Both the position numbers and the translations under genes were made by a program. The notes under the pieces are model-generated. The model was not told the origin of the DNA and did no database searches. It worked only from the letters and a program-made list of their open reading frames with translations. Shown piece after piece: positions 1-57,900 of a stretch of 64,000 nucleotides of DNA (position 1 is the first letter of the stretch; every line of letters starts with the position of its first letter). Origin of the DNA: an uncultured Myxococcales bacterium (GTDB lineage: Bacteria; Myxococcota_A; UBA9042); contig CAIXGW010000036.1 of assembly GCA_903919145.1 (NCBI GenBank), forward strand, positions 13,314 through 77,313, written 5' to 3'.

Positions 1-859
1 CGGCCAGCGCCCACGCCCCCAACAGAGCCTGGCGCCGCTCTAGGGGATCCTCAATCACATTGAGCACAAAGCCCAGGTTGACCGCTTGCGCCGGCCTCTT
101 GTCGCCATCGGGCCGGAAGTGCGGATCCCAGCCGGCGGTGTCCAGCCCGGCGCTGCTCAGGGCCCGCAGGTCATCGCCGCGGCCGCAGCCGTAGTCAAAG
201 AACGTGGCCTCTTGCAGCAGGCCGTGGCGCCACAGCGCCTGCACCGGGGTCGACAGGCCGTTGCGGCTCAGGGCCGTCCGATGGCGCAGTACCGGCTCCA
301 CCGCCGCATCTTGGCGCCCCACCAGCTGGTGGCCCTGCACCGCCAAGCCGCGGGCCGCCAGCTCTTCCTGCCACTGCCACAGGTGGCCAATAATGGCCGG
401 GTCGTCAAAAAGACCATGCGCTGTAGCTTGTTGGGTAAGGGTCCCCCACTGCGCGCGCTGGGGATGGTCGGCCGGCAGCAGCAGCTCCTTTCTGTGCAGG
501 ATTGGCTGGTTGCCCCCAGCTGGCCAGCGGCGGTGCTGCACCGGGCCCGCGGGCAGGTCCACCGTCCAGGCGGCGTGGAGCCTGGGAAAGGCTTCTTCAA
601 AAAAATCAGGGTATTTCAGCAGGGTCACCCTTCCCTGGTGCCCGCCGCCCGCGGCCTGGGTGGGGAGGTCGAGCTTGCACACCTGCCAGCTCAGCGGCGG
701 TCCGCGGTGGCTGGCGGCCAGCTGCTCGGCGAGGGTGACCCAATGGTATTCCCGCTCCGGGACTGCGGTTTTGTGGTAATACACCGCCCCGGCGATGCGC
801 TTGCCCACCTCAGGCGCTGGGGCGGCGTGCGGCGAAGGGGCGGTCGGCTCAGTTGGCAT
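1..859 (-). CDS. DNA phosphorothioation-associated putative methyltransferase-like protein, N-terminal 286 codons (3' end lies beyond the left window edge)
   Basis: Absent from the supplied track because it runs off the edge. My translation of the minus strand from ATG 859-857 stays open to position 2: MPTEPTAPSPH...GKRIAGAVYYHKTAV...ILHRKELLLPADHPQRAQWGTL...VLRHRTALSRNGLSTPVQALWRHGLLQEATFFDYGCGRGDDLRALSSAGLDTAGWDPHFRP...AVNLGFVLNVIEDPLERRQALLGAWALA. The FDYGCGxGxD...GWDP...VNLGxVxNVIED block matches my memory of the TIGR04096-type family. The assignment is from memory, not a search. Confidence 0.5.
   Translation of the reverse strand, partial: MPTEPTAPSPHAAPAPEVGKRIAGAVYYHKTAVPEREYHWVTLAEQLAASHRGPPLSWQVCKLDLPTQAAGGGHQGRVTLLKYPDFFEEAFPRLHAAWTVDLPAGPVQHRRWPAGGNQPILHRKELLLPADHPQRAQWGTLTQQATAHGLFDDPAIIGHLWQWQEELAARGLAVQGHQLVGRQDAAVEPVLRHRTALSRNGLSTPVQALWRHGLLQEATFFDYGCGRGDDLRALSSAGLDTAGWDPHFRPDGDKRPAQAVNLGFVLNVIEDPLERRQALLGAWALA
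404..450 (-). repeat. element-related sequence, copy N (in frame inside the methyltransferase-like CDS)
   Basis: AGTGGGGGACCCTTACCCAACAAGCTACAGCGCATGGTCTTTTTGAC. G5ACCCT plus TTTTTGAC at +27..+34, exactly as in B. Uses CTT and TTT codons. Confidence 0.4.
587..635 (-). repeat. possible degenerate element copy P (inside the methyltransferase-like CDS)
   Basis: GGGAAGGGTGACCCTGCTGAAATACCCTGATTTTTTTGAAGAAGCCTTT. GTGACCCT as in copy I, CCTGA at +11..+15 as in D and E, and a T7 run encoding Phe-Phe with TTT TTT. Confidence 0.25.
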
Positions 860-947
860 GGGCGTGGCCTCCTGGCGGCGCTGGCGCCAGGCCCGCAGCT
901 TGCCCGGTCGGCTGCTGGCTGGCTAGACTGCCTTGGGGAGGCGGACG

Positions 948-1553
948 ATGAAGAATCAGCAGCGCTCTGGCGACTCTGGCCCGCAACAACCTGCCGTCGA
1001 TATCGGCGCTCTGTGCAGCCGCCACTTTGCCTGGCGCGACCTGCTGCACTGCGGCGAGACCTGGCAGCGGCTGGCGCAACAGGGAGGGGGACCCTCGCTC
1101 AACCTGCCTAAACAGTTGGAGACTTGGCGGGGCCTGCAGGAGTTGGCGCGGCGGCTGTTGGACCCGCTGGTCGATCGCTTTGGGCCGGTTCAGCTGACCT
1201 ATGGCTTTGCCGGGCCAGAGCTGACGCGGCACATTGGCGGCCGCATCGCGCCCAAGCTGGACCAGCACGCCGGCAGCGAACTCGACCGCAACGGGATGGC
1301 GATCTGTGCCAGGGCGGGGCAGGCGGTGGATCTGCTGGTGCCCGGCACGGCCAGCGATCAGGTGGCGACCTGGATCCGCGCAGAATTGCCGTTTGACCGG
1401 CTGTATTTCTATGGCGCCGACCGCCCCCTGCACCTCAGCTTTGGCCCGCAGCACAAGCGGCAGGTGGTGGCGATGGTCCGCGGGGCCAGCGGGCGGCTGG
1501 TGCCGCGGCTGTGCAAGCCTTGGGCCCACCTGTCTGGCGGCGATGCCAGCTGA
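948..1553 (+). CDS. putative Zn hydrolase with peptidase M15 / DD-peptidase (hedgehog-type) fold
   Basis: Track ORF 933..1553. ATG 948 preceded by GGGGAGG (935-941) is the better start. DQHAGSELD (H-x6-D) and a later GQAVDLLV strand resemble M15-type metal and active-site segments. Balanced composition, unlike the overlapping shadow frames. Confidence 0.45.
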   Translation: MKNQQRSGDSGPQQPAVDIGALCSRHFAWRDLLHCGETWQRLAQQGGGPSLNLPKQLETWRGLQELARRLLDPLVDRFGPVQLTYGFAGPELTRHIGGRIAPKLDQHAGSELDRNGMAICARAGQAVDLLVPGTASDQVATWIRAELPFDRLYFYGADRPLHLSFGPQHKRQVVAMVRGASGRLVPRLCKPWAHLSGGDAS

Positions 1554-1656: not shown

Positions 1657-2988
1657 TCAATCCCTGACACGAACCTCGCTCCACCGCTCCGCCAGCTCTG
1701 GCCACTGGGTCGAGGCGCCGCCGCTTGCCACGTGCCGCACTGCGTCCTCTGCGCTGGCCATCGCGTGGTCCAGGTTGCAGTGCAGCCACAGCCCCTGCCG
1801 CCCCGCCGGCCACAGCCGACCCGACGCGCACGCATGCCGCAGCGCCAGCCGCCAGCGCGGCAGCCAGCCTCGGCGAAACAGCGGATACACCGCCGGCAAG
1901 AAGCGCTGGACCACCTCAGAGACCTCTGCCTCGCGGCTGAGGATTTTGGCCTGGGCCAGCTGCCGGCGCAATTCGCCCAGGTCGCCGGTAAAGTCGCGGT
2001 CCGCCGCGTGCCGACCCTGGGGAATCTCCACGCAGAGCACTCGGCCGCGCCCGTGCGGATGCCCCAGGAAATTGCCGACCTCGCTGACCCGCCCGAACCA
2101 GAACTGCGCCTCTGGCGTGTACCAGGTATCCACCGGGCCGGGCTGGCCATCGGCAACCACCAGCCACAGCAAGAACAAGCCGCGGTGATCCAGCTGGGCC
2201 GCCAGCTGCTGGTCGGGGGTCAGCGCGGCCGACAGGTGGCCGGTGTGGACCACAGCATCCGCATCCAGGTTGGCCAAATCACCATGCTGCAAGCTGAGTT
2301 GACATAGGGTCACCCTCGCACCGCTCTGCGTCGCCAGCTGGGCCAGCCCGTCCATCCACGCGCCAAAGCCGCCGCGCGGATGCAAGAACTCGCCGCGCTG
2401 GGGGCGCCACAGCAGCTGCCACGGGGCACTGCTCGATACGCGCTGCTTGGCGCAGCTCTGGCTCAGCTCGGCCGGGTCCAGGCCCCAGACTTTGTCGGCA
2501 TAGGGGCGGTAGAAGGCGCGGTAGGCCGCCTCGCCGCTGCGCGACCGGACAAATTCGCCAAAGCCTATATCGCTTTGCGGCTCTGGTGCGCGCTGGCGTT
2601 CCCAGTGGCGGCCGCTCAGGCGCGCGTGCACCAGGCTGCCCAGCAGCTCTCCGCCGCCGCGAAGGCCCAGCCCCTGGGCGAGATCGGTCAGCCGCAGCGG
2701 GTAGTTGAAGGACCTGCCGCCGACCAGCACCAGCCCGCGCCGCCGCCGCTTCTCCAGCGGAATGCGCTGCGCCAGCTCGGCCACGGCGGGCACCTGCAGG
2801 GCCGGGGCGTGCAGCCGGTGAGCACCCAGATCGCAAGGCCAGCCAGCCACTGGCTGCGGCGCCAGCAGCCCGCCGACCTGAGCCTCGGGGCCCAGCAGCT
2901 CGACCTGCCAGCCCGCCTGGGCCAGCCGCCAGCCGGCCGTCAACCCCGCCGCACCGCTGCCAACCACGATCGCCTTGCGGGTGGCCAT
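1657..2988 (-). CDS. FAD/NAD(P)-binding oxidoreductase (amine-oxidase / phytoene-desaturase-like fold)
   Basis: N-terminus MATRKAIVVGSGAAGLTAGWRLAQAGWQVELLGPEAQVGGL is a classic GxGxxG dinucleotide-binding fold. 443 aa. The start abuts the stop of the upstream gene (2989). Confidence 0.8.
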   Translation of the reverse strand: MATRKAIVVGSGAAGLTAGWRLAQAGWQVELLGPEAQVGGLLAPQPVAGWPCDLGAHRLHAPALQVPAVAELAQRIPLEKRRRRGLVLVGGRSFNYPLRLTDLAQGLGLRGGGELLGSLVHARLSGRHWERQRAPEPQSDIGFGEFVRSRSGEAAYRAFYRPYADKVWGLDPAELSQSCAKQRVSSSAPWQLLWRPQRGEFLHPRGGFGAWMDGLAQLATQSGARVTLCQLSLQHGDLANLDADAVVHTGHLSAALTPDQQLAAQLDHRGLFLLWLVVADGQPGPVDTWYTPEAQFWFGRVSEVGNFLGHPHGRGRVLCVEIPQGRHAADRDFTGDLGELRRQLAQAKILSREAEVSEVVQRFLPAVYPLFRRGWLPRWRLALRHACASGRLWPAGRQGLWLHCNLDHAMASAEDAVRHVASGGASTQWPELAERWSEVRVRD

Positions 2989-3591: not shown

Positions 3592-3597
3592 ATTCTG

Positions 3598-4359
3598 CTA
3601 CTGTGCCGCAGTCTTGGCCGCGCTGGCCCCGCCGCCGCCGCTTGGCACCAGCGCCTTGGCCAGGCCGGGCTTGAGCAGCAGCTCGTCGGCCATCGCCATC
3701 GCCCGCCGTACCCCGTTGGCCATCGACTTGGAGCTGATGGTCGCCCCGGCGATCGCCACAATGTCGGTGCCATGGCGCAGCGCATCGCCCGCGGTCTTGC
3801 CGACAAACTGGTTGCGAAAGCGCGTCTGCTGCACTTCGGCGCCGTAGGCCTCGCGATACACCATGACTTCCAAGCGCTTGAGCACGCCATCCGCGCCAAT
3901 CAGCACGCCAAAGGTGATCGGCTGGTGCTGGCCCAGCTCGTTGTCGAGGACGGCCACACCGTCGATGCGCTCGCCGGTCTTGCCGTAGTAGACGGTCCAG
4001 CTGGCGGCCACGTCATAGCCCAGCCGCTTGCGCAGGTTTTGCTGCTGCGCTGCCGTCAGGGCCAGCTTGGCAAAGGTCACGCGCTCGCTCTTGGCAAAGA
4101 AGTCCTTGAGCAGCGCAGGCTTGTCCCAGTACACATCCGCCGCCGCCGGCTTGGCCACCAGGCCCAGGCTGAGCACCAGCAGCGCCCCCAGCAGGCCCAG
4201 CAGCGCCCGACCGATCCGCGGCAAGGTCGCCAAATCGCCTTTCGCGGCGAGCAGTGGACTCAAACAGTGGGGGTGCAGCGCTGCCACGGGAACCTCGGCA
4301 ACCGGACGATAGGGAGCGTCCGACCAGCTAATGATAACGACTTTCAATTTCGTTTCCAA
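3598..4359 (-). CDS. FMN-binding domain protein (FMN_bind, RnfG/NosR-like), membrane anchored
   Basis: TM anchor ALLGLLGALLVLSLGLVA, then ...GVLIGADGVLKRLEVMVYREAYGAEV...IVAIAGATISSKSMANGVRRA. The AGATISS segment is the typical FMN-attachment region. The real start may be downstream of the annotated ATG, because the N-terminal 50 aa look non-genic. Confidence 0.65.
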   Translation of the reverse strand: METKLKVVIISWSDAPYRPVAEVPVAALHPHCLSPLLAAKGDLATLPRIGRALLGLLGALLVLSLGLVAKPAAADVYWDKPALLKDFFAKSERVTFAKLALTAAQQQNLRKRLGYDVAASWTVYYGKTGERIDGVAVLDNELGQHQPITFGVLIGADGVLKRLEVMVYREAYGAEVQQTRFRNQFVGKTAGDALRHGTDIVAIAGATISSKSMANGVRRAMAMADELLLKPGLAKALVPSGGGGASAAKTAAQ

Positions 4360-4431: not shown

Positions 4432-5769
4432 TCAGAACAGAAACGCCACGCTGCTGACAAACTTTGGCGCAAAATCCCAAGCGCCTGAAGCCACATCGCG
4501 GCGCACGCCCCCCGCCGCGTTGGAGACCAGCTGCACCTCGTTCTTCCAGACATAGCCCTCGATCGGCCGGTAGTTCAGGCCGGCGGTCAGCTTGTCGACG
4601 TCAAACTGGTTCAGCGCCGCTTGGTTGGTGTCGGTCTGCTCGTAGCGCAGCACGGCCGTCATCACCGAGTCGGTCAGATCGGCGGGCAGCAGCTGCCACA
4701 GCCACGGGATCGTGAAGTGCAGGTTGCTCTGCAGGTACCAGCCCTGCATGTCGGTAGGGATCGGCGCGCGGCTGTTGGCGGGGCTGCCGGCAGAAAACCC
4801 TTGCACATAGCCCGGATCGATAAAGGCCCGCACGTACTCGCCTTGGAACTCCAGTCGCCCAAGCCGCGCCGTCAAGTCCGCAGACACCATCTGGATGCGC
4901 CGCTGCTGGTCGTCGTATTCGCCGCGGTAGCCAGAAAGGCCCAGCTCCAGCTTGAGGTTGGGTGCCCAGGACAGCCGGCCGACCAAGGCCTTGTCGTCAT
5001 TGTTGTCTTCGCCCTTGCTGCCCACTGCGCCCTTGGTGCCCATGCCGTCGGCGATCTTGGCATCCAGCCCGTTGATGGCATAGACCTCATAAGCCAGCGT
5101 CTGGTCGCCGAATTCAAACTTGCCCAGGGCCCCCACGCCGGTCTCAAACCACGTCGACGGCGTAATCGTGGTCAGCGGCAGCGGCCGTTCGCTGAGGTCC
5201 TGGGTCGGCGCGTCGTGGCGCAGGTTGTAGGCACCAAACGGCACCAGGATGATGCCCGCTCGCAGGGTCAGCCACTCGGTCGCTTTGAAGTCGACCACGC
5301 TGAACTCAAGAATCGCTTCGCCTGCCTGCAGTTGCCCATCGCGCTTGCTGGGGCTGCCGCCAAACTCGATCTCAAACTCGGTGCTGGTAGAGATCCGCGG
5401 GTGCATCTGGCTGTAGAAGAACAGCACGTAGCGGTGGGCGTTAAAGAAGCTGTCGCGGCCCTGCTCGTTGGTGTACTCAATCTCGCCGTAGCCGCCAATC
5501 GTGGTTTTGTTGTGCACGCTCAGCAGCTTGTCAGAGATGTTGTCCAGCAAGGAGGTGCGGCGGTACATCTCGGCGCGGGCATCGTTGTCGTTGGGCTGGC
5601 CGTGGCCCACGGTGGGAGCCATGGCCGCGCCATCGTCGTCCAGTTCCAGCTTGGGGCCAGAGGACTCCACTGTCGGAGTCACGGCGGCGGGCGAAGCCAC
5701 GGGATCGGCTGCCGCGACGGTGGGCAACAGCCATGCCAAGGGGATTGCAAGAAACAGTAGTCTAAGCAT
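4432..5769 (-). CDS. outer-membrane beta-barrel (porin-like) protein
   Basis: Signal peptide MLRLLFLAIPLAWLLPTVAAADP, alternating beta-strand pattern, aromatic girdle residues, C-terminal ...SSVAFLF ending in Phe. AGGAA RBS 6 nt before ATG 5769. Confidence 0.7.
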   Translation of the reverse strand: MLRLLFLAIPLAWLLPTVAAADPVASPAAVTPTVESSGPKLELDDDGAAMAPTVGHGQPNDNDARAEMYRRTSLLDNISDKLLSVHNKTTIGGYGEIEYTNEQGRDSFFNAHRYVLFFYSQMHPRISTSTEFEIEFGGSPSKRDGQLQAGEAILEFSVVDFKATEWLTLRAGIILVPFGAYNLRHDAPTQDLSERPLPLTTITPSTWFETGVGALGKFEFGDQTLAYEVYAINGLDAKIADGMGTKGAVGSKGEDNNDDKALVGRLSWAPNLKLELGLSGYRGEYDDQQRRIQMVSADLTARLGRLEFQGEYVRAFIDPGYVQGFSAGSPANSRAPIPTDMQGWYLQSNLHFTIPWLWQLLPADLTDSVMTAVLRYEQTDTNQAALNQFDVDKLTAGLNYRPIEGYVWKNEVQLVSNAAGGVRRDVASGAWDFAPKFVSSVAFLF

Positions 5770-5792
5770 GGTGTTTCCTCAGGGTCCCCCTC
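5747..5792 (-). repeat. element-related sequence, copy K (G-run half plus downstream half; on the porin gene start)
   Basis: GAGGGGGACCCTGAGGAAACACCATGCTTAGACTACTGTTTCTTGC. The first 12 nt are identical to B. The ATGTTATCTCC segment is replaced by GAGGAAACACC. The ATG start is at +12 as in B. AGACTA at +18..+23 is identical to B, and TTTCT lies at +27..+31. Confidence 0.5.
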
Positions 5793-5829
5793 GACACAGC
5801 GCGGGGATCGGTCGGCGTTTGGCCGCCAG

Positions 5830-6933: not shown

Positions 6934-6987
6934 GGGGAGGCTCCGGGAATTGCCCTTTTGGCGTGTGGGTTTGTAGAGTGATGGCCG

Positions 6988-7770
6988 TCAGGGTTGGCAG
7001 ACGTGGTTGTCCTTGTTGTTGGTGACGCAGCGCTGCGGCTTGCCCTCTTTGGCCGGGCAGTCCTGGTCGCGGAAGCACTGAAAGGTGCGCGCGGCGGTGG
7101 TGCTGACCTCGCCCAGGCCGGCCTGACACACCAAGCCACCTGGCGAAATAGCCAAACAGCGCTTGCCTTTGGCGTCACAGCACTGACTGGTGGTGCACTC
7201 GCCCTGGCTGAGCACCGCGCTGCCGTCATTGTCCTTGACGCAGCACACCGCTAGGCACTGGCTGCTGCCCGGCTCCTGCGCGCAGACAATGCCGGTCTGC
7301 AGGTTGGGGTTGACGCCGACCCAGGTCACGGTGCCGTAGTAGGGGTCCACGACCTTTTGGCCCGGCTCGCCGCGGTGGGTGTCGTAGTACTCAAACACGC
7401 CGGGGCGCAGAAAAGTGTGGCGCCACCACGCGAATTCCTTGCCTTTCTCGCTTCCCATCGGCCCGCCGCGCTGCAGGCTCGGCGAGTACAGCTCGACCGG
7501 AGAGCTCAGGCTGGTCAGGTCAGTCGGCACATCGGGAGCAAAGTTGCGGAACTCCACGGTCTGGCCTACCTCGACCACCAAGCACGGCGGGTTGGCGGCC
7601 CCCATGCCGACTTCGACCATGTGGTCGGCCTTGACCTGCGCAGCGGGCGAGACCTGCGGGCCGTCGGGATGCGGTGCGCAGCCGGTCAGGGCCGCCAGCA
7701 AGCCGACGCAGCAGGTCGCCCGAACAGTCCCCAGGGCAATGTCTGATCGATGAAATCGAAGGGTTTTCAC
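6988..7770 (-). CDS. lipoprotein with cupredoxin-like N-terminal domain and Cys-rich C-terminal domain
   Basis: Lipobox LLAALTGC. VVEVGQTVEFRNFAPDVPT...GVFEYYDTH resembles a cupredoxin beta-sandwich but lacks the Cys copper ligand. The C-terminal 90 aa have about 15 Cys (CLAVCCVKDND...TSQCCDAKGKRC...). Overlaps the upstream gene by 4 nt. Confidence 0.55.
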   Translation of the reverse strand: MKTLRFHRSDIALGTVRATCCVGLLAALTGCAPHPDGPQVSPAAQVKADHMVEVGMGAANPPCLVVEVGQTVEFRNFAPDVPTDLTSLSSPVELYSPSLQRGGPMGSEKGKEFAWWRHTFLRPGVFEYYDTHRGEPGQKVVDPYYGTVTWVGVNPNLQTGIVCAQEPGSSQCLAVCCVKDNDGSAVLSQGECTTSQCCDAKGKRCLAISPGGLVCQAGLGEVSTTAARTFQCFRDQDCPAKEGKPQRCVTNNKDNHVCQP

Positions 7771-9260: not shown

Positions 9261-9299
9261 AGGCGGGCTCCGGATGGCGGGTGCTGCGGCGAGTGATAG

Positions 9300-9320: not shown

Positions 9321-9325
9321 GTAGC

Positions 9326-9355: not shown

Positions 9356-9379
9356 GATCGCGACTTAACGCGTCCGTTA

Positions 9380-9426
9380 CGGAAAAAGACTAGCAACGAC
9401 AAACAGATAACATTGGGTCCCCCTCT
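9380..9426 (-). repeat. dispersed G-run/ACCC[A/T]ATGT element, copy A (intergenic)
   Basis: AGAGGGGGACCCAATGTTATCTGTTTGTCGTTGCTAGTCTTTTTCCG. Lies between the 1227-aa gene stop and the GT-C gene promoter. T5 at +27..+31 counted from the A of the core ATG. Confidence 0.7.
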
Positions 9427-12500: not shown

Positions 12501-13275
12501 CCGCCAGCGCCACCTGCGCCGCCCCTCCTGCGCTGACATCTATCGGCAGGGGCACGCCTGCTTCTTCTTGCCAAGCGGGCGGTGCTGCTGAGCCACCGCC
12601 GTCTCTTAGGGCATCCAGTCCGGACATCAGCCTGCGCGACCATGGCTTTACCTGCTGCACGACCGTCAGATCGGCCGGTAGCTGCCCCACTGCGACTCCC
12701 AGCCGCGCCAACGCCATCGCCCGCTGGACCCGCTGCGCCGCCGCACCTTGCGCCACAAGGCCTTGCAGGGGCTGCCCTGTCTCGCGGTTGCCCAGCGGTT
12801 GCGCCAACGCGCCATGGTGGACCGCCCGCCATAGCGCCTGGGTGGCCGCGCGATCTCCTTCCACGCCCAGCGGTTGTAGCAGTTCTGCTGCCCGCAGCCA
12901 CTGCTGGGCCGCCGCCTGGCCGTGCAGGGCGCCGTCTCCCAGCCAGGCTCCCAGCCACGCCGCCTCGCCGCTGCTGGCGTGGGCAATCGCCACCGCGCTG
13001 GCCCCGTCCCGCCGCGCCGACCTTGGCATCAGCTCCTCTACCGCCTCCGGGCAGCCCTGGGACCACAGCAGGCACAGCCAGACCATCTGCCGGCGCGCCT
13101 CTGCCGCCAGCTCGGGATCGTTGAGGTGGTCGCGCGCCCATTGCCCGGTCTCGGCAGGGTCAGCGTCGGGGTGCCAAGCGGCTTTGGGCGCCGAGCACGC
13201 CGCCAGCCCAGCCAGGCAACCTGTCAAAAACCATAGTCTGCACAAGGAGATAACATAGGGTCCCCCTCTACTCAT
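9592..13275 (-). CDS. large lipoprotein: beta-sandwich + TPR-like helical region + DUF3857-like + degenerate transglutaminase-like domain (catalytic Cys replaced)
   Basis: 1227 aa paralog of the upstream gene with the same domain order. It has QGDRAALFYALARRLGADACLV where the paralog has FGDCKDKATLIAALLGELGIDAEV. Lipoprotein signal LWFLTGCLAGLAAC. The annotated ATG overlaps the upstream stop (ATGA). An in-frame TTG at 13245 directly precedes the signal peptide and is an alternative start. Confidence 0.75.
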   Translation of the reverse strand: MSRGGPYVISLCRLWFLTGCLAGLAACSAPKAAWHPDADPAETGQWARDHLNDPELAAEARRQMVWLCLLWSQGCPEAVEELMPRSARRDGASAVAIAHASSGEAAWLGAWLGDGALHGQAAAQQWLRAAELLQPLGVEGDRAATQALWRAVHHGALAQPLGNRETGQPLQGLVAQGAAAQRVQRAMALARLGVAVGQLPADLTVVQQVKPWSRRLMSGLDALRDGGGSAAPPAWQEEAGVPLPIDVSAGGAAQVALAVEHPGIQRLQVRWRGGGALTVGVRAERQLLAWLDGERLDHPESGLAATVKNLSPGQHRLDVLVAAAADGDPLWLAWLADAPPLGAPAPPPAGPELPPELDLVLQRAGQLLADPAVQVLNWWQQRFPKALLPALRGLFAGSTPQGGEAVDQVRAAWPLHGQALLLEAQRHLDSGNPQAALEQLDLLAQPAPRPVVEVKSGEVDRPGQALLPSAAARLARVRALQLLGLPDLGHQALAGEPVRTCAQRQAVWELALEFGYRPLLRSWAPTAMADDCPHLGVVAAQLLQSAGESKRSADALALAATRPALARQARQRLLQTAALAGEAPPQGPSWLSDVAQEQWQAAQQAWLRKNPGAAQRALGSLVTAAGPTLAQRQQALRAGAVPPWTAWLRNGSQIAAQADDPQLVSGARLAWLLDQEVVVLLPGGGAIRRVHQVLRVLADDAAEAVGEVRIAQGADLELARTLLADGTALPPADTADKETVSLRGVEAGTAVEYAQIVYVEPEDPATGATRLDPFLLQAYDGPIRESELVVLVPDGVTATLEASAHAPAPDVKRVGEFTVYTYRAHQVPRARQEPRAARAELAVASVRLSAQANLASVVEPWQEALAAMVQRPSAQLQAWQEQAALQPEGRERWQALARRIAQHVKQQHEGGLPGSATAALDQRQGDRAALFYALARRLGADACLVRLRPLAREPASLAADPLDWPMELVVIRRAGTDLWYDPGLEGGLIDHVRAGLRGRPGLLVGCQNPSAAAMVTVPPLGDGLDIREISGDLVWSADGAVTGHVQETLGGGVAALIRQFLASTPTGERDALLADLAGSSFPGLKLSWLGAWDLDSPSGPLVLRYGVTAKPSTQRETNLDLGLYPAELGKTYAGLPQRRTDLLLGYATDLRLQLRVHSLGKSIQPLGSLKAAHRLLQASRTTTALPDGLQLDYRLAVTPGLVGPEDYPAAAQALRAVDTAEQLRLSR
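13223..13269 (-). repeat. dispersed element, copy B (on the start region of the 1227-aa lipoprotein gene)
   Basis: AGAGGGGGACCCTATGTTATCTCCTTGTGCAGACTATGGTTTTTGAC; about 69 percent identical to copy A over 47 nt. In-frame TTG at +12 starts the lipoprotein signal peptide. T5 at +27..+31. Confidence 0.7.
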
Positions 13276-16200: not shown

Positions 16201-17129
16201 GCCAGCTTGACCAGCAGCCGCTGCCAGCCCGGCCGCAGTACCGCCGCCGCATGGTCGACCGCCGGCAGCGCCACAACCGCGGGGTCAATGCCGTAGGTCT
16301 CAGGCTTGGCGGCGATGCCCGGAAGGTCCTTGCCTTGGGCCGCGAGCTCCTTGCCCCCCAGCCACAGCCGCGCCGGCCCATCGATGCCCAGCTGGATCGT
16401 GACCGGCCCGGCCTGGTCTGCCCGCTCAGGCCTGATCCAGCTCTGCACATAGATCAAGGCGTCGTCGGGGCGGTCGACCAATTCGTCCAGCATTACTGTG
16501 GTTTCTGGTAGGGTCCCCCTCTGGTTCTCTGCCGTCAGGCCCTGCCCATGGCCGCGCGGCACGGCTTGCCAGCTCACCGGGCCCTGGCGACCGCGCCAGC
16601 TGGATTGCGGCGTCGCGGCCGGGCGCTGCATCGCCTCTGCCTCGACCTCAGCCACCCGCGCCAGCGCTGTGCCGTGCTCGTCGCCAAACGGCCCCAGCCA
16701 GCTCAGCGCCGTCACTTGGCCCAACTGGCCGCCGCGGGGCGCTCGCACCTGCTCTGCCAGTCGCTGCACCATGGCCAGCGCCGGCGAGTGGACCATGGCC
16801 GCGTGGTGGGCCCAGTCCGCCTGCAATTCACTCAGGGCCTGCTTGAATTGCGCCGGAGGCACCAGCGGCATCAGCCGGGCCAGCTCCAGGGCGCCGGCCA
16901 GACTGGCGGCCGGGTCGGGACTCCGCCCTTTGGCACCAGATCCGGTCAAGGCGGCGACCAGCTGCCCCAGCCGCAGCTGCTCGGTGGAGGCCAGAGGCTG
17001 CTCCGTTTTGGCCAATACCTCTATTTTCTTGGCATTTGCCGCAGCGGCCAGCCCTGCAACGGCCAGCCAACCAACAGCGGCAGCGGCCAGCCAGGCGAGC
17101 TTGGGCGGGCGGGTGGATCTTGGAGTCAT
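13272..17129 (-). CDS. large secreted protein: TPR region + DUF3857-like + transglutaminase-like cysteine protease core
   Basis: 1285 aa with a signal peptide. Core RQFGDCKDKATLIAALLGELGIDAEVALVRT...FNHAIAWVPALGWWLDAT gives the Cys-His-Asp arrangement of transglutaminase-like enzymes (Cys codon 14196-14198). 4-nt overlaps with both neighbours. Confidence 0.85.
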   Translation of the reverse strand: MTPRSTRPPKLAWLAAAAVGWLAVAGLAAAANAKKIEVLAKTEQPLASTEQLRLGQLVAALTGSGAKGRSPDPAASLAGALELARLMPLVPPAQFKQALSELQADWAHHAAMVHSPALAMVQRLAEQVRAPRGGQLGQVTALSWLGPFGDEHGTALARVAEVEAEAMQRPAATPQSSWRGRQGPVSWQAVPRGHGQGLTAENQRGTLPETTVMLDELVDRPDDALIYVQSWIRPERADQAGPVTIQLGIDGPARLWLGGKELAAQGKDLPGIAAKPETYGIDPAVVALPAVDHAAAVLRPGWQRLLVKLAPAGASLPLSIRVLDAKGAPLAVESAALPVGASAVAGEDPPPVAAEPDRVAGLRWAENSPLQGELAAALLQMAWHGWPMPQPLEERLLALDVADLPALPHLAVAHALLPGEAGDRVARLAAWRQRLPAEVTLLVAHARALDQAGQTTEAHRQWQQWAEQTGRQAELESVDACRTRVAIWSHMAADRAANGLLLQCLQKWPTVPRLLRDRAHRLAAAEQWRAAADLHARAVQLLDVPETRGEWVTALAEAGQLAKAELEAAKLLQMAPLRTRLWENLARYRLQDGELSMAQALLLRVPPGQRRTQWHDLAGQLAQRQGQRQEAVVHLRIATALSPQRSDLRARLQLLAQGSAFYAEARRDLLAMVQRERSQPRTHAVEIRLRQTLMHSLGNGQQARYEAEVWYLGPGAPGSHQSEIDYAPSLSEASVLQAVVVRADGRIERQVSQAVDRFTEDASGMYFDLERLTLTFQNLRPGDAVVIEHAVHDLAPAPFGLVFGELVPLSDVVPVRETQVAIRLPQGMALHAKVRDHAQPDQNFLPEIKTVGRADEGGPWQQWSWTLGPFAAAAADVQGPGATELLAYLHASSFGGWPEVVQWYQGLLREALPARGTDPLLRELAARLTQGKQTTEAKVRAVYDYARSQVRYVGLEFGIHSIKPHSAREVAQRQFGDCKDKATLIAALLGELGIDAEVALVRTADHGQLSDGIASLGVFNHAIAWVPALGWWLDATATHHGPLELPTGDTGGMALRIRPRGAKLESLPTADFANELDQSTAELRLDGQGGATLHWSGQWRGLAAAMARQLLATSARKDKLESEIAERWPSLQATQVQVSGVDPQADTVTAQLDGRLTAWGQRQGSDWLLAPKRPQRPWQEVLARAETRQVALVLEAPIHETETVRLLLPPGWRAQNLPAHQKLQWQGCRFELQAQPVGGGVQLIHQLEIPQVRVSAAAYPEFRAWLAQVDAALRTEIAVGPEVAP
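16476..16523 (-). repeat. element-related sequence, copy L (in frame inside the transglutaminase-like CDS)
   Basis: CAGAGGGGGACCCTACCAGAAACCACAGTAATGCTGGACGAATTGGTC. A 14-mer AGAGGGGGACCCTA is shared with B. AATTGG at +27..+32 as in E and F. In-frame ATG at +17. Confidence 0.45.
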
Positions 17130-24837: not shown

Positions 24838-24897
24838 GACCCAGATCAACCGGACTCGACCCAGATCAACGGGGGCTGACCCAATGTTATGGCCGCT
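24838..24897 (+). repeat. three tandem 20-nt units, each starting GACCCA[G/A]AT; the third unit is the core of element copy C
   Basis: GACCCAGATCAACCGGACTC / GACCCAGATCAACGGGGGCT / GACCCAATGTTATGGCCGCT at 24838, 24858 and 24878 (exact 20-nt period). A degenerate fourth unit, GACCGCAGCCGGACCT, lies at 24822. Confidence 0.7.
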
Positions 24898-24917
24898 TAG
24901 AGAAAGAGCAATTGCCC
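24871..24917 (+). repeat. dispersed element, copy C (upstream of the Y1 transposase gene)
   Basis: GGGGGCTGACCCAATGTTATGGCCGCTTAGAGAAAGAGCAATTGCCC. AATTG at +27..+31, as in E, F and L. Confidence 0.7.
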
Positions 24918-24955
24918 GCTGAGGTGGTCGCCTCCAGGATGTCCCTCTCCTTGGC

Positions 24956-25071: not shown

Positions 25072-26193
25072 ATGAATCGACGCTCTAAAGCCAATCCCAC
25101 CGTTTTGGCCACGCAGCCTGACGCAGCCATGCCAACCTCGCGGGCCACGCTCGTGCGCAACTACGACCCAAAGTATCTCCATGAGATCACGATCCGCACC
25201 AACAACGGCGTGTTTGCCTTTGATCCCAATGATCAAGGGCTCAAGTCGCTGGTTCTGGGCCTGCTGCATGAGGCGGCCAGGACCTACGGCGTTAGCATCA
25301 TTGGCATTCAGTTCATGACCAACCACTACCACGGACTGTTTGGTATTGCCTCGGCGGCCAGGTTCTGCAAGTTTCTCATGTACTTTCATGGATGTGTGGC
25401 CAGCCTTGCTCACGTCAGGCTTGGCACTGGGGGCAAGTTCTGGAGCGAGAACAAGTGGGTCCCAGTCGCCCAGGACGAGGTATCGGTCTCACGGCGGCTC
25501 CGCTACATCCTTGGCCAGGCGGTCAAGGCCGGGTTGGTGGAACACCCCGTCCAGTTCCCGGGCATCTCGAGCACTGACTTCATGATCGACGGCAAGCCGC
25601 TTGTCGGACTCGTGTTCGATAGGACGCGCCGCTACCGCGACAGCCAACTGAAGGCTGGAACCAAGCCCGAGGAGGCCTACACGACCCGGGTCGAAGTGCC
25701 TATCAGTCCGCCGCCTTGCTGGGCGCACCTGAGCCCCGGCGAACTGCAGCAGCGCTACCGACAGATTGCAGACGAGGTTGCGCGGACGCCGCTTCATGTG
25801 CTGCGCGGCACGCGGTTGCTGGCCAGTCCGCAGCCTGAGCCTCCGGACCTGACCCAACGTCAACTGTCAGATAAAGAAGAAGAAATCCTCGAGACGGTCG
25901 ACGACAAGGTGCGGATTCCAGTCCGCGAGACCGAGACCGGCAAACCCCACGAACAGGGCCGCCCGAACGCCAAGAAGCGTGGAGACAAGCGCCGGCGTAT
26001 GCCCTACTTGCTGTCGTCCAATCTTCTGGAAGTGTTGGCGTATGAGGAAAGCTACCTTCAGCTTTGCGAAGCGTACGCCGCGGCAAAGCGGCGATGGCAC
26101 GCGCGCGCAAGTACGGGCCATGATGGGTTGGTGGCCCCCAGGTTCAAGCTGCCGCCGCACACACTGGTAGGGACAATGCCTTTGGTGGACTAG
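25072..26193 (+). CDS. Y1 HUH transposase, IS200/RAYT-like (COG1943-type), with about 225-aa C-terminal extension
   Basis: ATG 25072 with GGAAGG 6 nt upstream; the track ORF starts at TTG 25009. YLHEITIRTNNGVFAF...GVSIIGIQFMTNHYHGLF contains the HUH motif (HYH codons 25324-25332). RLRYILGQAVKAGLVEHPVQFPGIS contains the catalytic-Tyr helix (Tyr codon 25504-25506). 373 aa, whereas the IS200/RAYT proteins I remember are about 150-190 aa. Confidence 0.8.
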   Translation: MNRRSKANPTVLATQPDAAMPTSRATLVRNYDPKYLHEITIRTNNGVFAFDPNDQGLKSLVLGLLHEAARTYGVSIIGIQFMTNHYHGLFGIASAARFCKFLMYFHGCVASLAHVRLGTGGKFWSENKWVPVAQDEVSVSRRLRYILGQAVKAGLVEHPVQFPGISSTDFMIDGKPLVGLVFDRTRRYRDSQLKAGTKPEEAYTTRVEVPISPPPCWAHLSPGELQQRYRQIADEVARTPLHVLRGTRLLASPQPEPPDLTQRQLSDKEEEILETVDDKVRIPVRETETGKPHEQGRPNAKKRGDKRRRMPYLLSSNLLEVLAYEESYLQLCEAYAAAKRRWHARASTGHDGLVAPRFKLPPHTLVGTMPLVD

Positions 26194-26230
26194 GTCCGGC
26201 CAAGCAAGCTGCCGACCAGGAAGGGCGGCG

Positions 26231-26278
26231 CGGAGGAAGTAATGTGATGTCAGGGATTTGACATTGGGTCGGGGGCGG
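26231..26278 (-). repeat. dispersed element, copy D (downstream of the Y1 transposase gene, inverted relative to C)
   Basis: CCGCCCCCGACCCAATGTCAAATCCCTGACATCACATTACTTCCTCCG. C-run instead of G-run. CCTGA at +11..+15 and ATTACT as in E and F. Confidence 0.6.
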
Positions 26279-30709: not shown

Positions 30710-30723
30710 CTGCTGAGTGTGTG

Positions 30724-30775
30724 CACCTGACCCTATGTTATTTTCCTGAGATTACTGTGGAATTGGCCGTATTCC
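30724..30775 (+). repeat. dispersed element, copy E (52-nt direct repeat, first copy)
   Basis: CACCTGACCCTATGTTATTTTCCTGAGATTACTGTGGAATTGGCCGTATTCC. Hairpin GGAAT-N7-ATTCC at 30759-30775. Confidence 0.75.
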
Positions 30776-30912
30776 GACTGCCGGATGTGCAGGGGTGGGC
30801 GCTCCAGCCTGTCGACCTCGCCCAAGGCACGGTCAGATGCCAGCACTTGGCCGCAGCGCCAGCCGCCGTGAGCGACCGGTGCCCCGCGCAACCCACCGGT
30901 CTGGCTCTTGCA

Positions 30913-30964
30913 CACCTGACCCTATGTTATTTTGCCGAGATTACTCAGGAATTGGCCAGGTTCC
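30913..30964 (+). repeat. dispersed element, copy F (52-nt direct repeat, second copy, 189 nt downstream of E)
   Basis: CACCTGACCCTATGTTATTTTGCCGAGATTACTCAGGAATTGGCCAGGTTCC; 45/52 identical to E. The hairpin is kept as GGAAT-N7-GTTCC (G-U possible only on the + strand RNA). Overlaps the stop codon and last 7 codons of the convergent HAD gene. Confidence 0.75.
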
Positions 30965-38370: not shown

Positions 38371-39045
38371 TCAAGGGTGATGGATCACCGCCACCGCGTC
38401 CAGGTCAAAGCCGCCCGAGCTACCCTGGTATTGGTTGAGCCCGGAGTCGGTGATCCTCACCAGTCGCCACGGCCCAGGGCCTATGGCGCCAAGCGCCTGC
38501 AGGTCAAACGCGTCGCCCCCGGCCAGCGCGACATCCACTGGCGAAATCCCGTTGCCCGGCGCCGAGAAGACGGGAGTCACCCCCGCGCAGCCCGGATAGT
38601 CTGGGGCCAGCTCGGCGTGGCACGGCCACTCGTGCCAGGTGACGCCATCGGCGCTGATCGCCACCCGGCCGGTTTCGCTGAACCCCGCAAAGGCATTCTC
38701 AAACACCAGCAGATCCGCTCCTGGGCCGTCCACCAGCGGCTGGTCATCCAGCGCCACCACGATGGTGCCGCCTTGGCCCAGCGAGACCACGTCCAGACCT
38801 CCCGCTGTGGCCCCGCCGCCCTGGGGTGCTCCCAGGACCACGGCGGGCAGCTTGTCGGCCCCAAAGCCAGCGTTGGGCCCAGGCGCAAAGCTTACCACGC
38901 GATCTGCAAATAAATCCAGTGACTTAACATTGGGTGGCCCCCCGTATTCACTGTCGCATCCCGGCAAGGCAATGGCAGGCAGGGCCGCCAAGCCCGCCAC
39001 CGCCAGCCTTACCCCGCGGCCGCCCAGCTGAGAGAGCGCTTTCAT
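38371..39045 (-). CDS. lipoprotein, function unknown
   Basis: Lipobox AIALPGC, then a Gly-rich beta-type domain (DLLVFENAF..., VRITDSG...GFDLDAVAVI). Contains in-frame element copy G (codons 33-48). The start abuts the stop of the upstream lipoprotein gene. Confidence 0.6.
   Translation of the reverse strand: MKALSQLGGRGVRLAVAGLAALPAIALPGCDSEYGGPPNVKSLDLFADRVVSFAPGPNAGFGADKLPAVVLGAPQGGGATAGGLDVVSLGQGGTIVVALDDQPLVDGPGADLLVFENAFAGFSETGRVAISADGVTWHEWPCHAELAPDYPGCAGVTPVFSAPGNGISPVDVALAGGDAFDLQALGAIGPGPWRLVRITDSGLNQYQGSSGGFDLDAVAVIHHP
38897..38943 (-). repeat. dispersed element, copy G (in frame inside a lipoprotein CDS)
   Basis: GGGGGGCCACCCAATGTTAAGTCACTGGATTTATTTGCAGATCGCGT encodes ...YGGPPNVKSLDLFADR... 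using TTA, TTT and GCA codons. Confidence 0.55.
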
Positions 39046-42675: not shown

Positions 42676-42682
42676 GGGTTTC

Positions 42683-42728
42683 CGTGTAGATGCGAGTTAT
42701 TCCAAGCAGATAACATTGGGTGCCCCGC
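42683..42728 (-). repeat. dispersed element, copy H (intergenic, antisense to flanking + strand genes)
   Basis: GCGGGGCACCCAATGTTATCTGCTTGGAATAACTCGCATCTACACG. Begins 8 nt after the stop of 41098..42675. Followed on the + strand by the direct repeat AGATCTCCAC/AGATCTCCGC (42732-42751). Confidence 0.65.
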
Positions 42729-42829
42729 AATAGATCTCCACAGATCTCCGCAGCGGCCCGTTGGTCGACGCGCCGCGCCGGGCAAGGCACAATGCGCAAC
42801 TCGCCGCCCACCACGGGCTGGAGACACTC

Positions 42830-46976: not shown

Positions 46977-46978
46977 GC

Positions 46979-54869: not shown

Positions 54870-54935
54870 ACGTCGCGAACCGGTGCGCGGCACACTCGGC
54901 GGCACCACGGCGTTGGGCGGGCGGCGAGAGCGGCG

Positions 54936-57900
54936 ATGACGAATTTCGGACAGAGCGACCAGAGGAGCGGTTTGCGGGTGACCCTATGTCATGTCCGCGC
55001 CGTGGCTCATGTTTTTGCGATATCGTCTGCCCTGTTCTGCGGGTCTGCGGTCCCGCCGGCGCAGGCCCAGCCGGCGCAAGCCCAGCCGGCCGACCAGGTG
55101 GCCCTGCAGGGGGCGCAGGGCGAAAAGGAGGCGATGGCCGAGACCGAGCCTCTGCAGCTGGCGTTTTCTGACGCCTACAATGCCGGAAACTACGCAAAGG
55201 CTCTGGAAATCCTTAAGAAAGCGCTGGAGGTTTGGCAGAAGAAGGTGGGGCCCAACCATCCGATCGTCGGCAATCTGCGGGTCAACTGTGCGGAATTGAT
55301 GCGCCAGCTCGGGCGGTTGCAGGAGGCAGAGGTCGAGCTGGAGGCGGCGCTGGCGGTGCTGCAGACTACCCTGGGGCCAGAGCACGCGCAGACGCTGGTG
55401 GCGCACCACAACCTGGGGGCGTTGCAGCTGCAGCGCGGGCGGGTGGCGCAAGCGGTCGAGACACTGGAGAAAGTGTTGGTCCTGCTGGTCAAGGTGCGCG
55501 GCGAAGGCTCGCTGGAAGTCGCGCAGGCGCGCATGCACTTGGCCGACTCCAAGCTGCAGCAGGGCAAGCTGGCTGAAGCCAAGGCCTTGTACGAACAGGT
55601 GATGCGCGCGCTGGAGAGTGCCAAGCCGCCCAGCGCCGAGCACCTGGCCATCGCCTACAACAACCGCGCCAAGCTCAAGCGTTACCAGGGCGACCTGCCA
55701 GGGGCCGAGGATGATCTCAGCAAGGCCGCGCTGATCCTGGGGAAAGTCTTTGGCATGAGCCATCCCTCCCTGGCGATGGCGGCCATCAACCTGGCCGATC
55801 TGCGGATGGAGCGCGGCGACCTGGGGCTGGCCGAAGAGGCGCTGATTCAAGCGATCCGCCTGTCGGCATCGGCCCTGGGGCCAGAGCATCCCCAGGTGGG
55901 GCATGGCGCGGTCCTGCTGGCCAATCTGTACCGGACCCGCGGCGAGCACGATCGGGCCAAGAAGCTCTACGCCGAGGCGCTGCCGATCCTGGAGCACGCC
56001 TACGGTCCCCAGCACCCGGCGCTGGCCGAGGCGCTCAACCACCAGGGCGTGCTGGCGCTGCAGATGGCCGACGACGCGCTGGCTGGGCAACTGCTAGACA
56101 GAAGCTGGAAAATCTTGGTGAAGCCGGGGCAGACGCCGCCGCAGCTCGCCATCACGGTCGGGCAGAACCTGGCCGTTGTGCTGGAGCGCACCGACCGCGC
56201 CGACCAGGCGGCAAAGCTCTACGCAGAGGCGATCGCCGCCTGCGACCAGGTGGTGGGCGCCGATCAGGCGGCCTGTGCCCCGCCGCGCTACAACCTGGGG
56301 CTGCTCCACCTCAAGGCGCGCCGGCTGCCGCAGGCCCAGCAGTGGCTGCAAGCGTCGCTGCTGCTGCGCGAGAAAGCGCTGGGGCCTCACCATCCCGACG
56401 TGGCCCGCTCGCTGGCGGCGGTGGCGGCGATCCTGGATCTGCAGGGAAAGCTCAGCGGCGCGGCCGACCTGATGCAGCGCGCCGTCGAGATCCGCGACCG
56501 CCAGCTGGCGCTGATGCTGGGTGGCGGCGCCGAAGGGCCCAAGCGCGCGCTGGTGGCGACCCTGGGCGAAGAGCGAGACATTGCCCTGGACCTGCTGCTG
56601 AGGGCCGGGCGGCCGGCGGCGGCGCTCGAGCTGGTTTTGCAGCGCAAGGGCCGGGCGCTGGAGGCCACGGTAGACGGCCTGCGCGGCGTCGGCGCAGATT
56701 CGCAAGCCGCGGCTGAGCTTTCTGCGGCGCGCGGCCGGCTGGCAGCCCTGTACGCCCGCGGGCCGGTGGGGCAGCCGGCAGAGGTCTACGCGGCCGCCCT
56801 GCAAGAGGCCGGGCGCAGGGCAGAGGAGCTGGAGAGGCGGGCAGTGGCTCGCTTTGGCCCGGCGGTGTCGGCCGAGCCGCTGCACCTGGCGGACCTTCAG
56901 GCGCGCCTGCGCGGGGGGACCCTCTTGGAACTGTTTGTGCGCAAGCCGCTTTCGCTCAAGAAGCCTGAGTCGGCCCAGGCGCCGGCGCTGGTGACCGGCT
57001 GCCTGCTGGGGCCCAAGGGGCCGCCGGTGTGCCGCGACCTGGGCCCGGCTGCCGAGCTGGAGGGGCTGGCCCTGCAGGTGCGGCGCGCCGCGATGCTGCC
57101 GACCGGCGACGTCGACAAGCCGGGCGCGGCGCTGCGCCAGGCGGTCATCGACCCGTTTGCGGCCGAGCTCAAGGCGGTCAAGCAGCTGCTGGTGGCCCCC
57201 GATGGCGCGCTGCATCTGGTGCCCTTTGCGGCCTTGCCGGCGGCTGCAGGGGGCCGGCTGTTGCAGCAGTACACCCTGTCTTACCTGACCTCTGGCCGCG
57301 ACTTGCTGCGGATGGCGGCCACACCGGCGCAGCCCGTGCCGCGCGGCCAAGCGGTGCTGATCGGTGCGCCAGGCTACGACCAAGCGGCGCAGGGGGACCC
57401 CACCAAAACCCAAGCAGTGCCTCAGCAATTGCCGGCACCGGGGCGACGGGCGGCCGCCGGGCTGGGCCGCTTCAGCCCGCTGCCAGGCACGGCGGAGGAG
57501 GCGGCGCAGCTGGCGGCGCTGTGGCCCAAGGCCCAGGTGTGGAGCGGTGCTGCCGCCAGTGAGAAAGCCCTGCGCGGGGTGCGCGGCCCTGAGCTGCTGC
57601 ACATCGCGACCCACGGTTTCTTCTTGGCAGACAAGGCCGATCCGGTGGTAGAGGCGGTGCGCGGCGGCCGGCGCGGCGCGGAGCTGTGGGGCGAGCCGCC
57701 AGCGCCAGTGCTGCCCGAGCCCGGCCGCGACGACCCGCTGCTGCGATCGGGCATTGCCCTGGCTGGCGCCAACCAGCCGCCGCAAGGCGATGACGACGGC
57801 GTGATGACCGCCTTGGAAGTCGCTGGGTTGGACCTGGTAGGCACCCGGCTGGCGGTGCTGTCTGCCTGCGAGACCGGCGTGGGCGACGTCAAGAACGGCG

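Follow-up and report, generated by a model that had tools for sequence, protein, structure and literature searches.

The window, a 64-kb stretch (64,000 nt) of contig CAIXGW010000036.1 from an uncultured freshwater Myxococcota, carries a gene for a divergent HUH/Y1 tyrosine transposase, 25072-26193 (+), and 19 copies (12 clear and 7 decayed) of a strand-specific element of about 50 nt, or roughly one copy per 3.4 kb (Table 1). Three of the copies stand at the transposase gene, hereafter the Y1 gene; copy counts cover these 64 kb of the genome. The other proteins encoded in the window include Ser/Thr kinases with PEGA or TPR domains, a TPR-CHAT protein and DUF3857-transglutaminase proteins, in DNA whose G+C content ranges from 62 to 73%. 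The dispersed family, already proposed in a preliminary description of the sequence, is genuine and conserved at the DNA level, not as a protein motif.

The element is made of three parts: a G-rich 5' end, a WATGTYA core and an AT-rich distal box that is either of a T-run type or of a GAATTGG type. The extended core ACCCWATGTYA has 10 exact matches on the two strands of the window, against 0.03 expected from 100 dinucleotide shuffles, and the 14-mer AGAGGGGGACCCWA, noticed earlier for its three occurrences, is indeed found three times against none expected. A position matrix added copies 738+ and 25852+ to the core matches and, together with an nhmmer profile run on the window, led to the 12 clear copies, which score 16.6-32.4 bits; the top score in 20 Markov shuffles is 8.9 bits. 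Since the profile was built from the 12 clear copies themselves, their scores are partly circular, and the shuffled controls, which gave no comparable matches, show only that the background yields nothing alike. Similarity extends past the core, as had been observed before: outside the 11-mer the mean pairwise identity is 0.396, against 0.279 in random 50-mers (maximum 0.316 in 200 sets), and in a fixed 50-nt frame copies A and B agree at 33/50 positions and copies E and F at 41/50, close to the figures given in the preliminary description. The 3' part of the element is 51% A+T for 33% in the window.

The half-site GGGKGACCC occurs 12 times in the window where 1.8 occurrences are expected. Seven of these sites have no WATGTYA core (439-, 622-, 1086+, 5782-, 16511-, 56914+, and 57392+), most of them keeping the distal T-run or AATTG box at the family offset, and are decayed members of the family. 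The excess of half-sites bears out the weaker copies reported previously. The range then given for the family stops short of the weak copy at 57389-57438.

Table 1. The 19 copies of the element in the 64-kb window, those at the Y1 gene first, then the other clear copies and the decayed ones.
Copy	Coordinates	Strand	State	Distal box	Placement
C (24879)	24871..24920	+	clear	AATTG	left flank of the Y1 gene, ~150-200 nt upstream
25852 (in-gene copy)	25844..25893	+	clear		in frame in the Y1 gene, encodes DLTQRQ; disordered hypervariable linker
26259 (right-flank copy)	26228..26277	-	clear		inverted, ~65 nt past the stop codon of the Y1 gene
A (9408)	9377..9426	-	clear	T-run	intergenic; ~26 nt upstream of the conserved TTGACG-N17-TATAAC promoter-like site of gene 7767-9260 (-)
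B (13251)	13220..13269	-	clear	T-run	occupies the gap between two large genes; contains the TTG start and first lipoprotein signal-peptide residues of gene 9592-13242 (-)
E (30730)	30722..30771	+	clear	AATTG	directly past the stop codon of gene 29978-30709 (+)
F (30919)	30911..30960	+	clear	AATTG	3' end overlaps the last codons of HAD hydrolase gene 30941-31675 (-)
38925	38894..38943	-	clear		in lipoprotein gene 38371-39045 (-), linker following the lipobox Cys
42711	42680..42729	-	clear		intergenic between two (+) genes, antisense
54981	54973..55022	+	clear		overlaps start and signal peptide of the TPR-CHAT gene (ORF from 54936)
2300	2269..2318	-	clear		in frame in FAD oxidase gene 1657-2988 (-), reads RVTLCQLSLQHG
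738	730..779	+	clear		antisense within gene 859-> (-); core ACCCAATGGTA
439	401..450	-	decayed		sense within gene 859-> (-); core gone, GGGGGACCC and CATGGTCTTTTTGAC kept
622	584..633	-	decayed		sense within gene 859-> (-)
1086	1083..1132	+	decayed		within ORF 933-1553 (+)
5782	5744..5793	-	decayed		ATG start of gene 4432-5769 (-) at element position +16
L (16511)	16473..16522	-	decayed	AATTG	in frame in gene 13272-17129 (-)
56914	56911..56960	+	decayed		sense within the TPR-CHAT gene
57392	57389..57438	+	decayed	AATTG	sense within the TPR-CHAT gene

The Y1 gene codes for a protein of 373 residues from the ATG at 25072 (354 residues in the database gene call). Sequence motifs and predicted fold identify its product as a divergent member of the HUH/Y1 transposases, similar to the tyrosine transposases associated with repetitive extragenic palindromic (REP) sequences, or RAYTs. 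It has the HUH motif NHYHG and a catalytic tyrosine in the helix RYILGQAVKAGLV, in the motif YILGQ (Y---Q and not Y---NP); H66, H68, and Y126, in the numbering of the 354-residue call, are invariant in an alignment of 21 sequences of Y1 homologues. The NCBIfam model REP_Tyr_transpos (NF047646) matches with E=1.2e-7 and 31.7 bits for a cut-off of 80, positions 4-144 of its 146 being aligned, and Pfam Y1_Tnp with E=0.004 and 17.6 bits for a gathering score of 23. The AlphaFold model of the protein is confident (pLDDT 82.5, pTM 0.80), and its top fold match in the PDB is 4ER8_A, a complex of the REP-associated tyrosine transposase of E. coli with a REP hairpin; next come TnpA of IS608, ISDra2, and IS200 with a Foldseek probability of 1.00. 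Pfam gives no helix-turn-helix (HTH) or DnaA_C match in the protein, no tnpB-like open reading frame (ORF) adjoins the gene, and the 64-kb window holds no second copy of it. A profile search found 536 protein clusters at E<1e-30, most of ~310 residues, showing that the protein family is not rare. The cumulative GC skew of the window has its minimum at ~24-26 kb, which is the Y1 gene locus, and gene strand shifts there from mostly (-) to mixed/(+) (~22000-28000); this could be a replication origin or a mere gene-strand effect.

Copy 24879+, ~190 nt before the Y1 gene, and copy 26259- bracket it in inverted orientation, with GACCCAATGTYA inverted on its two sides over a stretch of 14-16 nt (16 nt in the related locus L001), and copy 25852+ lies inside the gene. 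The preliminary description had set the family apart from REP-type elements and left these three copies unlinked to the gene between them; that separation fails, the window encoding a Y1/HUH transposase bracketed by copies of the family. The linker that holds the in-gene copy is modelled at pLDDT <50 (residues 231-257) and is hypervariable in length and sequence among homologues, the residues encoded by the in-gene copy (LTQCY, RLCQ, PLCQ, NCLMH) being its sole conserved island. Directly upstream of the left-end copy, a 13-nt direct repeat, GACCCAGATCAAC, is found twice at 24840-24878.

Eleven homologous loci from uncultured Myxococcota, designated by L numbers, were compared. A scan of a genome collection yielded 10 loci, all in genome bins and none of the window's own species, and a metagenome scan with a protein profile yielded 4 useful loci out of 16. 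Upstream and in-gene copies are present at 9/11 homologous loci, the gene being preceded at 140-210 nt by one or two copies in sense and containing a further one, also in sense. The upstream copy has the position and orientation of copy C in L001, L037, L038, L021, L006, L004, L005, and L008, and some upstream copies are direct pairs on one strand (L006, L021). An inverted downstream copy is found at five loci including the window (the others are L001, L037, L004, and L006). L039 has the in-gene copy GGCC-CAA-GGCCGTGTCA and no clear upstream copy, and L007, whose contig begins at the gene, has the in-gene copy only. The sequence of the element changes from lineage to lineage: it is CCTGACCCWATGTTAT in L001, L037, and L038 (60-64% protein identity), GCACCCTTGTGTCAGAT in L021 and L006, AAAGCC-N3-GGCTTTGTCA in L004 and L005, and CATGGCWAYTGTCTGAT in L008. 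Common to all versions are a GC-rich block, the TGTYA core that follows it and a distal box rich in A+T, for instance CCTGAGWTTACTG or CATGAAATT. Five element versions track the lineages of the Y1 protein, and at the nine homologous loci where the flanks can be read the in-gene version is the flanking version. L004, L006, and L018, too, have the local version in dispersed copies. L001, L037, and L038, relatives with the same gene and the same version, hold 0-1 dispersed copies in ~38 kb, compared to 16 in the window, so that the expansion of the element is specific to the window's lineage.

L001 and L037 have the same genes next to their Y1 homologues, which sit at one syntenic locus. Two genome bins hold three Y1 loci each, several of them at contig ends. 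In L007, L008, L011, and L012, from two Myxococcota bins, near-identical Y1 homologues lie at contig ends, two such loci per bin, which suggests that the gene is multi-copy in these bins and breaks their assemblies. L024 codes for a short-type homologue with 30% identity, with inverted arrays of a 26-nt palindrome (unit GCGCGGCGTCGTGCACCGCGCGAGCT) on both sides of the gene, at 5624-5831 and 6865-6968, giving the look of a classic REPtron.

The T-run and AATTG subtypes, first described as two subfamilies, are genuine, and the left-end copy at the Y1 gene is of the AATTG type. Two features that had been taken as defining are not universal: the G-run is missing from five copies (the three at the Y1 gene, E and F) and the ATG is not a start codon, sister versions reading TTGTC or GTGTC there. 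A GGG-N3-CCC mini inverted repeat is found at the 5' end of 14 of the 19 copies. Alignment of the versions on TGT reveals, at a fixed distance, a stem of 3 bp around a loop of 3 nt, GGG-N3-CCC in the window and GCC-N3-GGC in L004, L005, and L039, lengthened to AAAGCC/GGCTTT in L004 and L005; its bases differ on both sides between versions (GGG/CCC vs. GCC/GGC). The mini-stem is fully paired in 7/12 window copies, 5/5 copies of L004, 4/4 of L005, and 1/1 of L039, against 6% of random positions, and all seven decayed window copies carry GGGKGACCC. An unpaired form, (A/G)CC-TGA-CCC, is present in the three gene-associated window copies, in E and F, and in all copies of L001, L037, and L038. As this form is limited in the window to the gene-associated copies, E and F, the copies that multiplied there are mostly of the mini-stem type.

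The mini-stem is too short to count as a REP hairpin. A larger stable hairpin is ruled out: folding of the whole element gives z-scores near zero (-1.8 to +2.5), no better than shuffles, with no common structure, which leaves only the 3-bp mini-stem. A GT[AG]G (or CGTC) foot tag is absent from the aligned copies, GTAG being found near copy B only, and no copy matches at gathering score in an Rfam 15 scan of the window. The sole match at that score is a cobalamin riboswitch at 39830-39986 (-) (33.8 bits), upstream of ORF 39046-39645 (-), which is not a copy of the element.

Ten copies are entirely contained in ORFs, nine in sense orientation; three others (13251, 5782, and 54981) overlap gene starts and six are intergenic. 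The genes that begin in 13251 and 5782 both have their start codon at element offset +16, with the first part of the signal peptide encoded by the T-rich box. Co-orientation with the local gene, claimed earlier for all copies but two, is found by gene calls in 15 of the 19: it is the rule, with more exceptions than stated. Copies 1086 and 38925 match the gene strand and not the local GC-skew trend (738 was assigned to this group as well, though antisense within gene 859-> (-)), which makes transcription direction a better predictor of orientation than possible replication direction. Three copies (439-, 622-, 738+) are packed within ~380 nt of gene 859-> (-), at window positions 401-779. Close inverted doublets of the REPIN/BIME kind are absent from the window except for the pair bracketing the Y1 gene. 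In the close pairs, E/F and 622/439, the two copies point the same way at a distance of 183-189 nt, and the spacers are unrelated. Direct pairs 160-189 nt apart are seen in four places (30730/30919, 622/439, L021 2022/2205, and L006 123/283). A composite unit of two direct copies ~185 nt apart was considered and rejected, given spacers without similarity and a spacing that may be coincidence.

The closest relatives of the window are metagenome bins of uncultured Myxococcota, of which L014, L016, and L018 cover window positions 1.6-13 kb and 28.5-43.7 kb. In the syntenic L014 and L016 nothing corresponds to copies E, F, and 42711, and their sequence at these places cannot be aligned with the window. 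The intergenic region at 42711 is ~77 nt longer in the window than in L016 and the spacer with E and F is longer than in L014, so these alignments give the three copies the look of insertions. The HAD hydrolase that copy F overlaps ends in WPIPE in the window and in WPIPQ in L016. The L016 spacer corresponding to that of E and F holds, at ~12340-12480, a different repeat, a tandem 18-nt unit of approximate sequence GGGTGCTTTCGCCCAAAA. The reverse case is a TGTCA-version copy in the 5' untranslated region of L018 and L020, absent from the window. Other copies behave differently. At copy 38925, orthologues have a linker just two residues shorter; their DNA can be aligned with the window's codon by codon, and every difference brings the window sequence closer to the element consensus. 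The gene with copy 2300 codes for 443 residues, as do its two closest orthologues, and the next two come within 1-2 residues of this length. The copy falls in a 38-nt run that the L018 gene (82% identical overall) shares without a mismatch; L020 retains part of the copy and L019 has lost it. A different version, GGGGGCCTTGTGTCAAATCCATGAAAT, occupies the 9408 site in L018, with the orientation unchanged and the distance to the conserved TTGACG promoter-like site the same within 1 nt. Taken together, these loci indicate that some copies come and go, and that others persist and switch version or overwrite sequence. L018, with a 2300 copy and different-version copies, one of them at the 9408 site, was rejected as an element-free relative. 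The host gene of copy 16511 has paralogues that strongly diverged at the copy.

Two other conserved sequences were observed in the regions covered by these relatives. Past copy A (~9285-9360 (-)), the TTGACG-N17-TATAAC site is followed by an inverted repeat, TGAAAGTGAcATTCACTTTCA, which has the look of an operator; the region is nearly identical in L018 (3590-3660), the remaining spacer not aligning. A 33-nt block, CTTGGAAACGAAATTGAAAGTCGTTATCATTAG, at window positions 4331-4359 (-) plus flanks, is conserved in three lineages (L018 ~8560-8600, L020 ~1450-1500). It is located upstream of an FMN_bind gene beside a porin-like gene, overlaps a promoter-like match and has the look of a Fur-type box.

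We place the family with the REP/RAYT and TIR/TIRYT (terminal inverted repeat) systems (PMC3733652, PMC6006769) as an atypical member; it has the logic of REPtron-like, TIRtron, and class 3/subclass 2.4 systems and the full definition of none. We found no paper describing such repeats in Myxococcota. The likeness to REPtrons of the REP/RAYT type (PMC2817692, PMC3116915, PMC3333891) is manifold: a short repeat is densely represented (19 copies in 64 kb), inverted copies of it stand on both sides of a Y1/HUH gene, repeat version co-varies with protein lineage, the gene occupies the same locus in L001 and L037, and 4ER8 is the top fold match. The system differs from them by an element without stable palindrome, GT[AG]G tag, or inverted doublets (REPINs), by its location, since half of the copies (10/19) are inside genes instead of extragenic and three more are at gene starts, and by a Y1 protein about twice as long, with Y---Q in place of Y---NP and a score under the NCBIfam cut-off.

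TIRtrons, or TIRYT, which are subclass 2.1 of Quentin et al. 2018 (PMC6006769), are Y1 genes flanked by non-hairpin inverted repeats, some of which form dispersed families (Di Nocera et al. 2013, PMC3733652). The non-hairpin inverted repeats flanking the Y1 gene of the window similarly belong to a dispersed family, with 16 further copies. Some TIRtron repeats carry a GGGGWSAS consensus (PMC3733652); GGGTGAC, present in five copies, fits it at 7/8 positions, whereas GGGGGAC misfits and the gene-flanking copies read CCTGACCC. The differences are an inverted part of just 14-16 nt at the gene, gene-flanking copies without G-run, a protein with neither Y---NP nor an HTH tail detected by Pfam, and a conserved in-frame in-gene copy, for which TIRtrons have no described equivalent. 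Class 3 Y1 genes, with features between insertion sequence (IS) and REPtron, are associated with atypical weak structures with a CnGA foot, reaching ~600 copies in Solibacter (Quentin et al. 2018, PMC6006769). CTGA stands directly before CCC in 5/19 window copies, but the class 3 proteins are of ~178 residues with NHVH and Y----Q, while the window protein is of 354-373 residues with NHYH and Y---Q. In subclass 2.4, REP copies are found in frame within the tnpA gene, between the HUH and Tyr motifs (PMC6006769). The window also has an in-frame repeat copy inside its transposase gene, but in the C-terminal linker, where it is kept in all lineages examined.

The IS200/IS605 elements (IS608, ISDra2) share the HUH/Y1 catalytic core and fold; the several gene copies at contig ends in two bins and the direct upstream pairs in L006 and L021 are further likenesses. 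Unlike them, the element has no subterminal hairpins, there is no tnpB partner, the ends are inverted and not direct, the gene is unrepeated in the window, and its homologues in L001 and L037 are at one syntenic locus. Rickettsia palindromic elements are in-frame intragenic repeats, often in linkers or termini (mentioned in PMC3733652), and resemble the window family in having in-frame copies inside functional genes. They are, however, palindromes of 100-150 nt that add residues, whereas two intragenic window copies add no length.

We favour the hypothesis that the family is the cognate repeat of a REPtron/TIRtron-like system of the Y1 enzyme 25072-26193, expanded in this lineage. This is the probable explanation because the link to the gene is conserved and lineage-specific and the in-gene copy is always of the local version. 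The Y1 gene would then be a REPtron/TIRtron-like unit, with a sense copy upstream, an in-frame copy in the linker, and an inverted copy downstream, and the other 16 copies would be non-autonomous relatives of the gene ends, multiplied in this lineage. By analogy with TnpA(REP) and IS200/IS605 TnpA, the enzyme would recognise the two-part element on one strand, in single-stranded form, and its catalytic tyrosine would cut and rejoin the bound strand, thereby spreading the element or keeping its copies uniform. Binding, cleavage and mobility are proposed here by extension from biochemical work on TnpA-REP and IS608 (PMC3479197, PMC3333891), and the strand and the cleavage site are proposed as well. 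The bias toward the sense strand may stem from access to the non-template strand, from selection against antisense copies, or from replication bias.

Several observations weigh against this hypothesis. Known Y1 enzymes recognise hairpins, while the element is without a stable one and the three copies at the Y1 gene are even without the GGG/CCC mini-stem. The Y1 protein is under the curated thresholds of both Pfam Y1_Tnp and NCBIfam REP_Tyr_transpos. Copy 38925 comes without a 50-nt insertion and looks overwritten onto coding sequence by substitutions, and copy 2300 is common to an 82%-identical orthologue with no net insertion; simple insertion does not explain these two copies, and to account for the 9408 site either the element must have re-inserted at a hotspot or one version must have replaced the other in place. 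The readable part of the genome is 64 kb, so that the copy number is a figure for the window and not genome-wide. Mobilisation of the copies by the Y1 enzyme is proposed by analogy.

The main rival to a REPtron/TIRtron-like system is that the copies are domesticated, fixed recognition sites of an HUH protein with a host function, such as single-strand DNA processing at replication/transcription or chromosome organisation, and were rewritten by selection or short-patch conversion instead of transposed. Several facts would fit: the in-gene copy has the same place in all lineages and always the local version, L018 has another version of the element where the window has copy 9408, copy 38925 has no net insertion and changes only toward the consensus, copy 2300 belongs to a 38-nt run that is unchanged in an orthologue with 82% identity, the synteny of the gene in L001 and L037 agrees with vertical inheritance, and 15/19 copies are co-oriented with genes. 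We nevertheless regard it as unlikely, since E, F, and 42711 are without counterpart and stand in spacers longer than those of L016 (42711) and L014 (E/F), the core is lost in seven copies, the gene is multi-copy at contig ends in two bins, like insertion sequences, and relatives with the same gene and version are nearly without dispersed copies, which is hard to square with an essential network. A more particular idea, to which we give a smaller chance still, is that a domesticated HUH enzyme, or the repair that it triggers, rewrites short patches to its current recognition sequence, the copies not being selfish insertions. Patch rewriting would then act inside coding regions without change of length, preferentially on the sense strand of transcribed genes, and such templated patch conversion would be an activity not described for Y1 enzymes.

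Explanations that leave the enzyme aside fare worse. That the copies are a cis-regulatory or RNA element (promoter, 5'-UTR signal, leader peptide, or terminator) unrelated to the Y1 gene is very improbable, even if their co-orientation with genes, the position of 9408, 13251, 5782, and 54981 at gene 5' ends, the two start codons at the same element offset, +16, and the AT-rich 3' part in a GC-rich genome would agree with it. There is neither an Rfam match nor a consistent fold, ten copies fall within coding sequence, two others come after convergent genes or stand between them, sister versions have other bases instead of the ATG and the G-run, and the arrangement around the Y1 gene would be left unexplained. 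A sigma-70 promoter or an intrinsic terminator is ruled out, the window scan showing no sigma-70-like site on any copy and a single weak terminator-like match, at 54988-55006 in copy 54981. A Shine-Dalgarno sequence with an ATG-started leader peptide was likewise rejected, since the ORFs that the ATG would open have neither length nor sequence in common and sister versions do not keep the ATG. A DNA-uptake-type signal (USS/DUS-like), accumulating by mutation and biased recombination, is less probable again. Its core with phased AT-rich tracts, its lineage-specific versions and the overwriting of coding sequence without net insertion by some copies would be in line with such a signal, but the strand bias relative to genes is strong, the density is only about one copy per 3.4 kb, and close relatives are nearly without dispersed copies. 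To our knowledge, the repeated tight pairing with a Y1 gene has no counterpart in uptake-sequence systems. Least probable of all is the idea that the nucleotide pattern reflects a conserved protein motif (R-V/G-T-L-C...), suggested by the single phase shared by 7/10 wholly intragenic copies, which read (R/G)(V/G)TL. It is refuted by the many intergenic copies and by the intragenic ones, which are in three reading phases with one antisense; the core has no synonymous variation, and the proteins hosting intragenic copies are unrelated to one another. The codons used in the copies include AGG, GGG, TGT, and TAT, expected to be rare at this G+C content, and third-position G+C falls to 0.45-0.6 at the sense copies 439 and 622, against 0.8-0.95 elsewhere in gene 859-> (-).

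REP-type repeats and their tyrosine transposases are common, their workings are poorly understood, and knowledge of them comes almost wholly from the hairpin-forming REPs of Proteobacteria. The system found here in uncultured freshwater Myxococcota pairs a long divergent Y1 enzyme, missed by database thresholds, with a non-palindromic, two-part and strand-specific element, of which one copy is retained inside the enzyme's own gene in every lineage examined and some intragenic copies are without net insertion. Its lineage-specific versions are natural enzyme-site pairs for studies of specificity. Such repeats can create or reshape gene starts, as in copies 13251 and 5782, and unexplained 50-nt repeats in GC-rich bins should prompt the search for a nearby Y1 gene.

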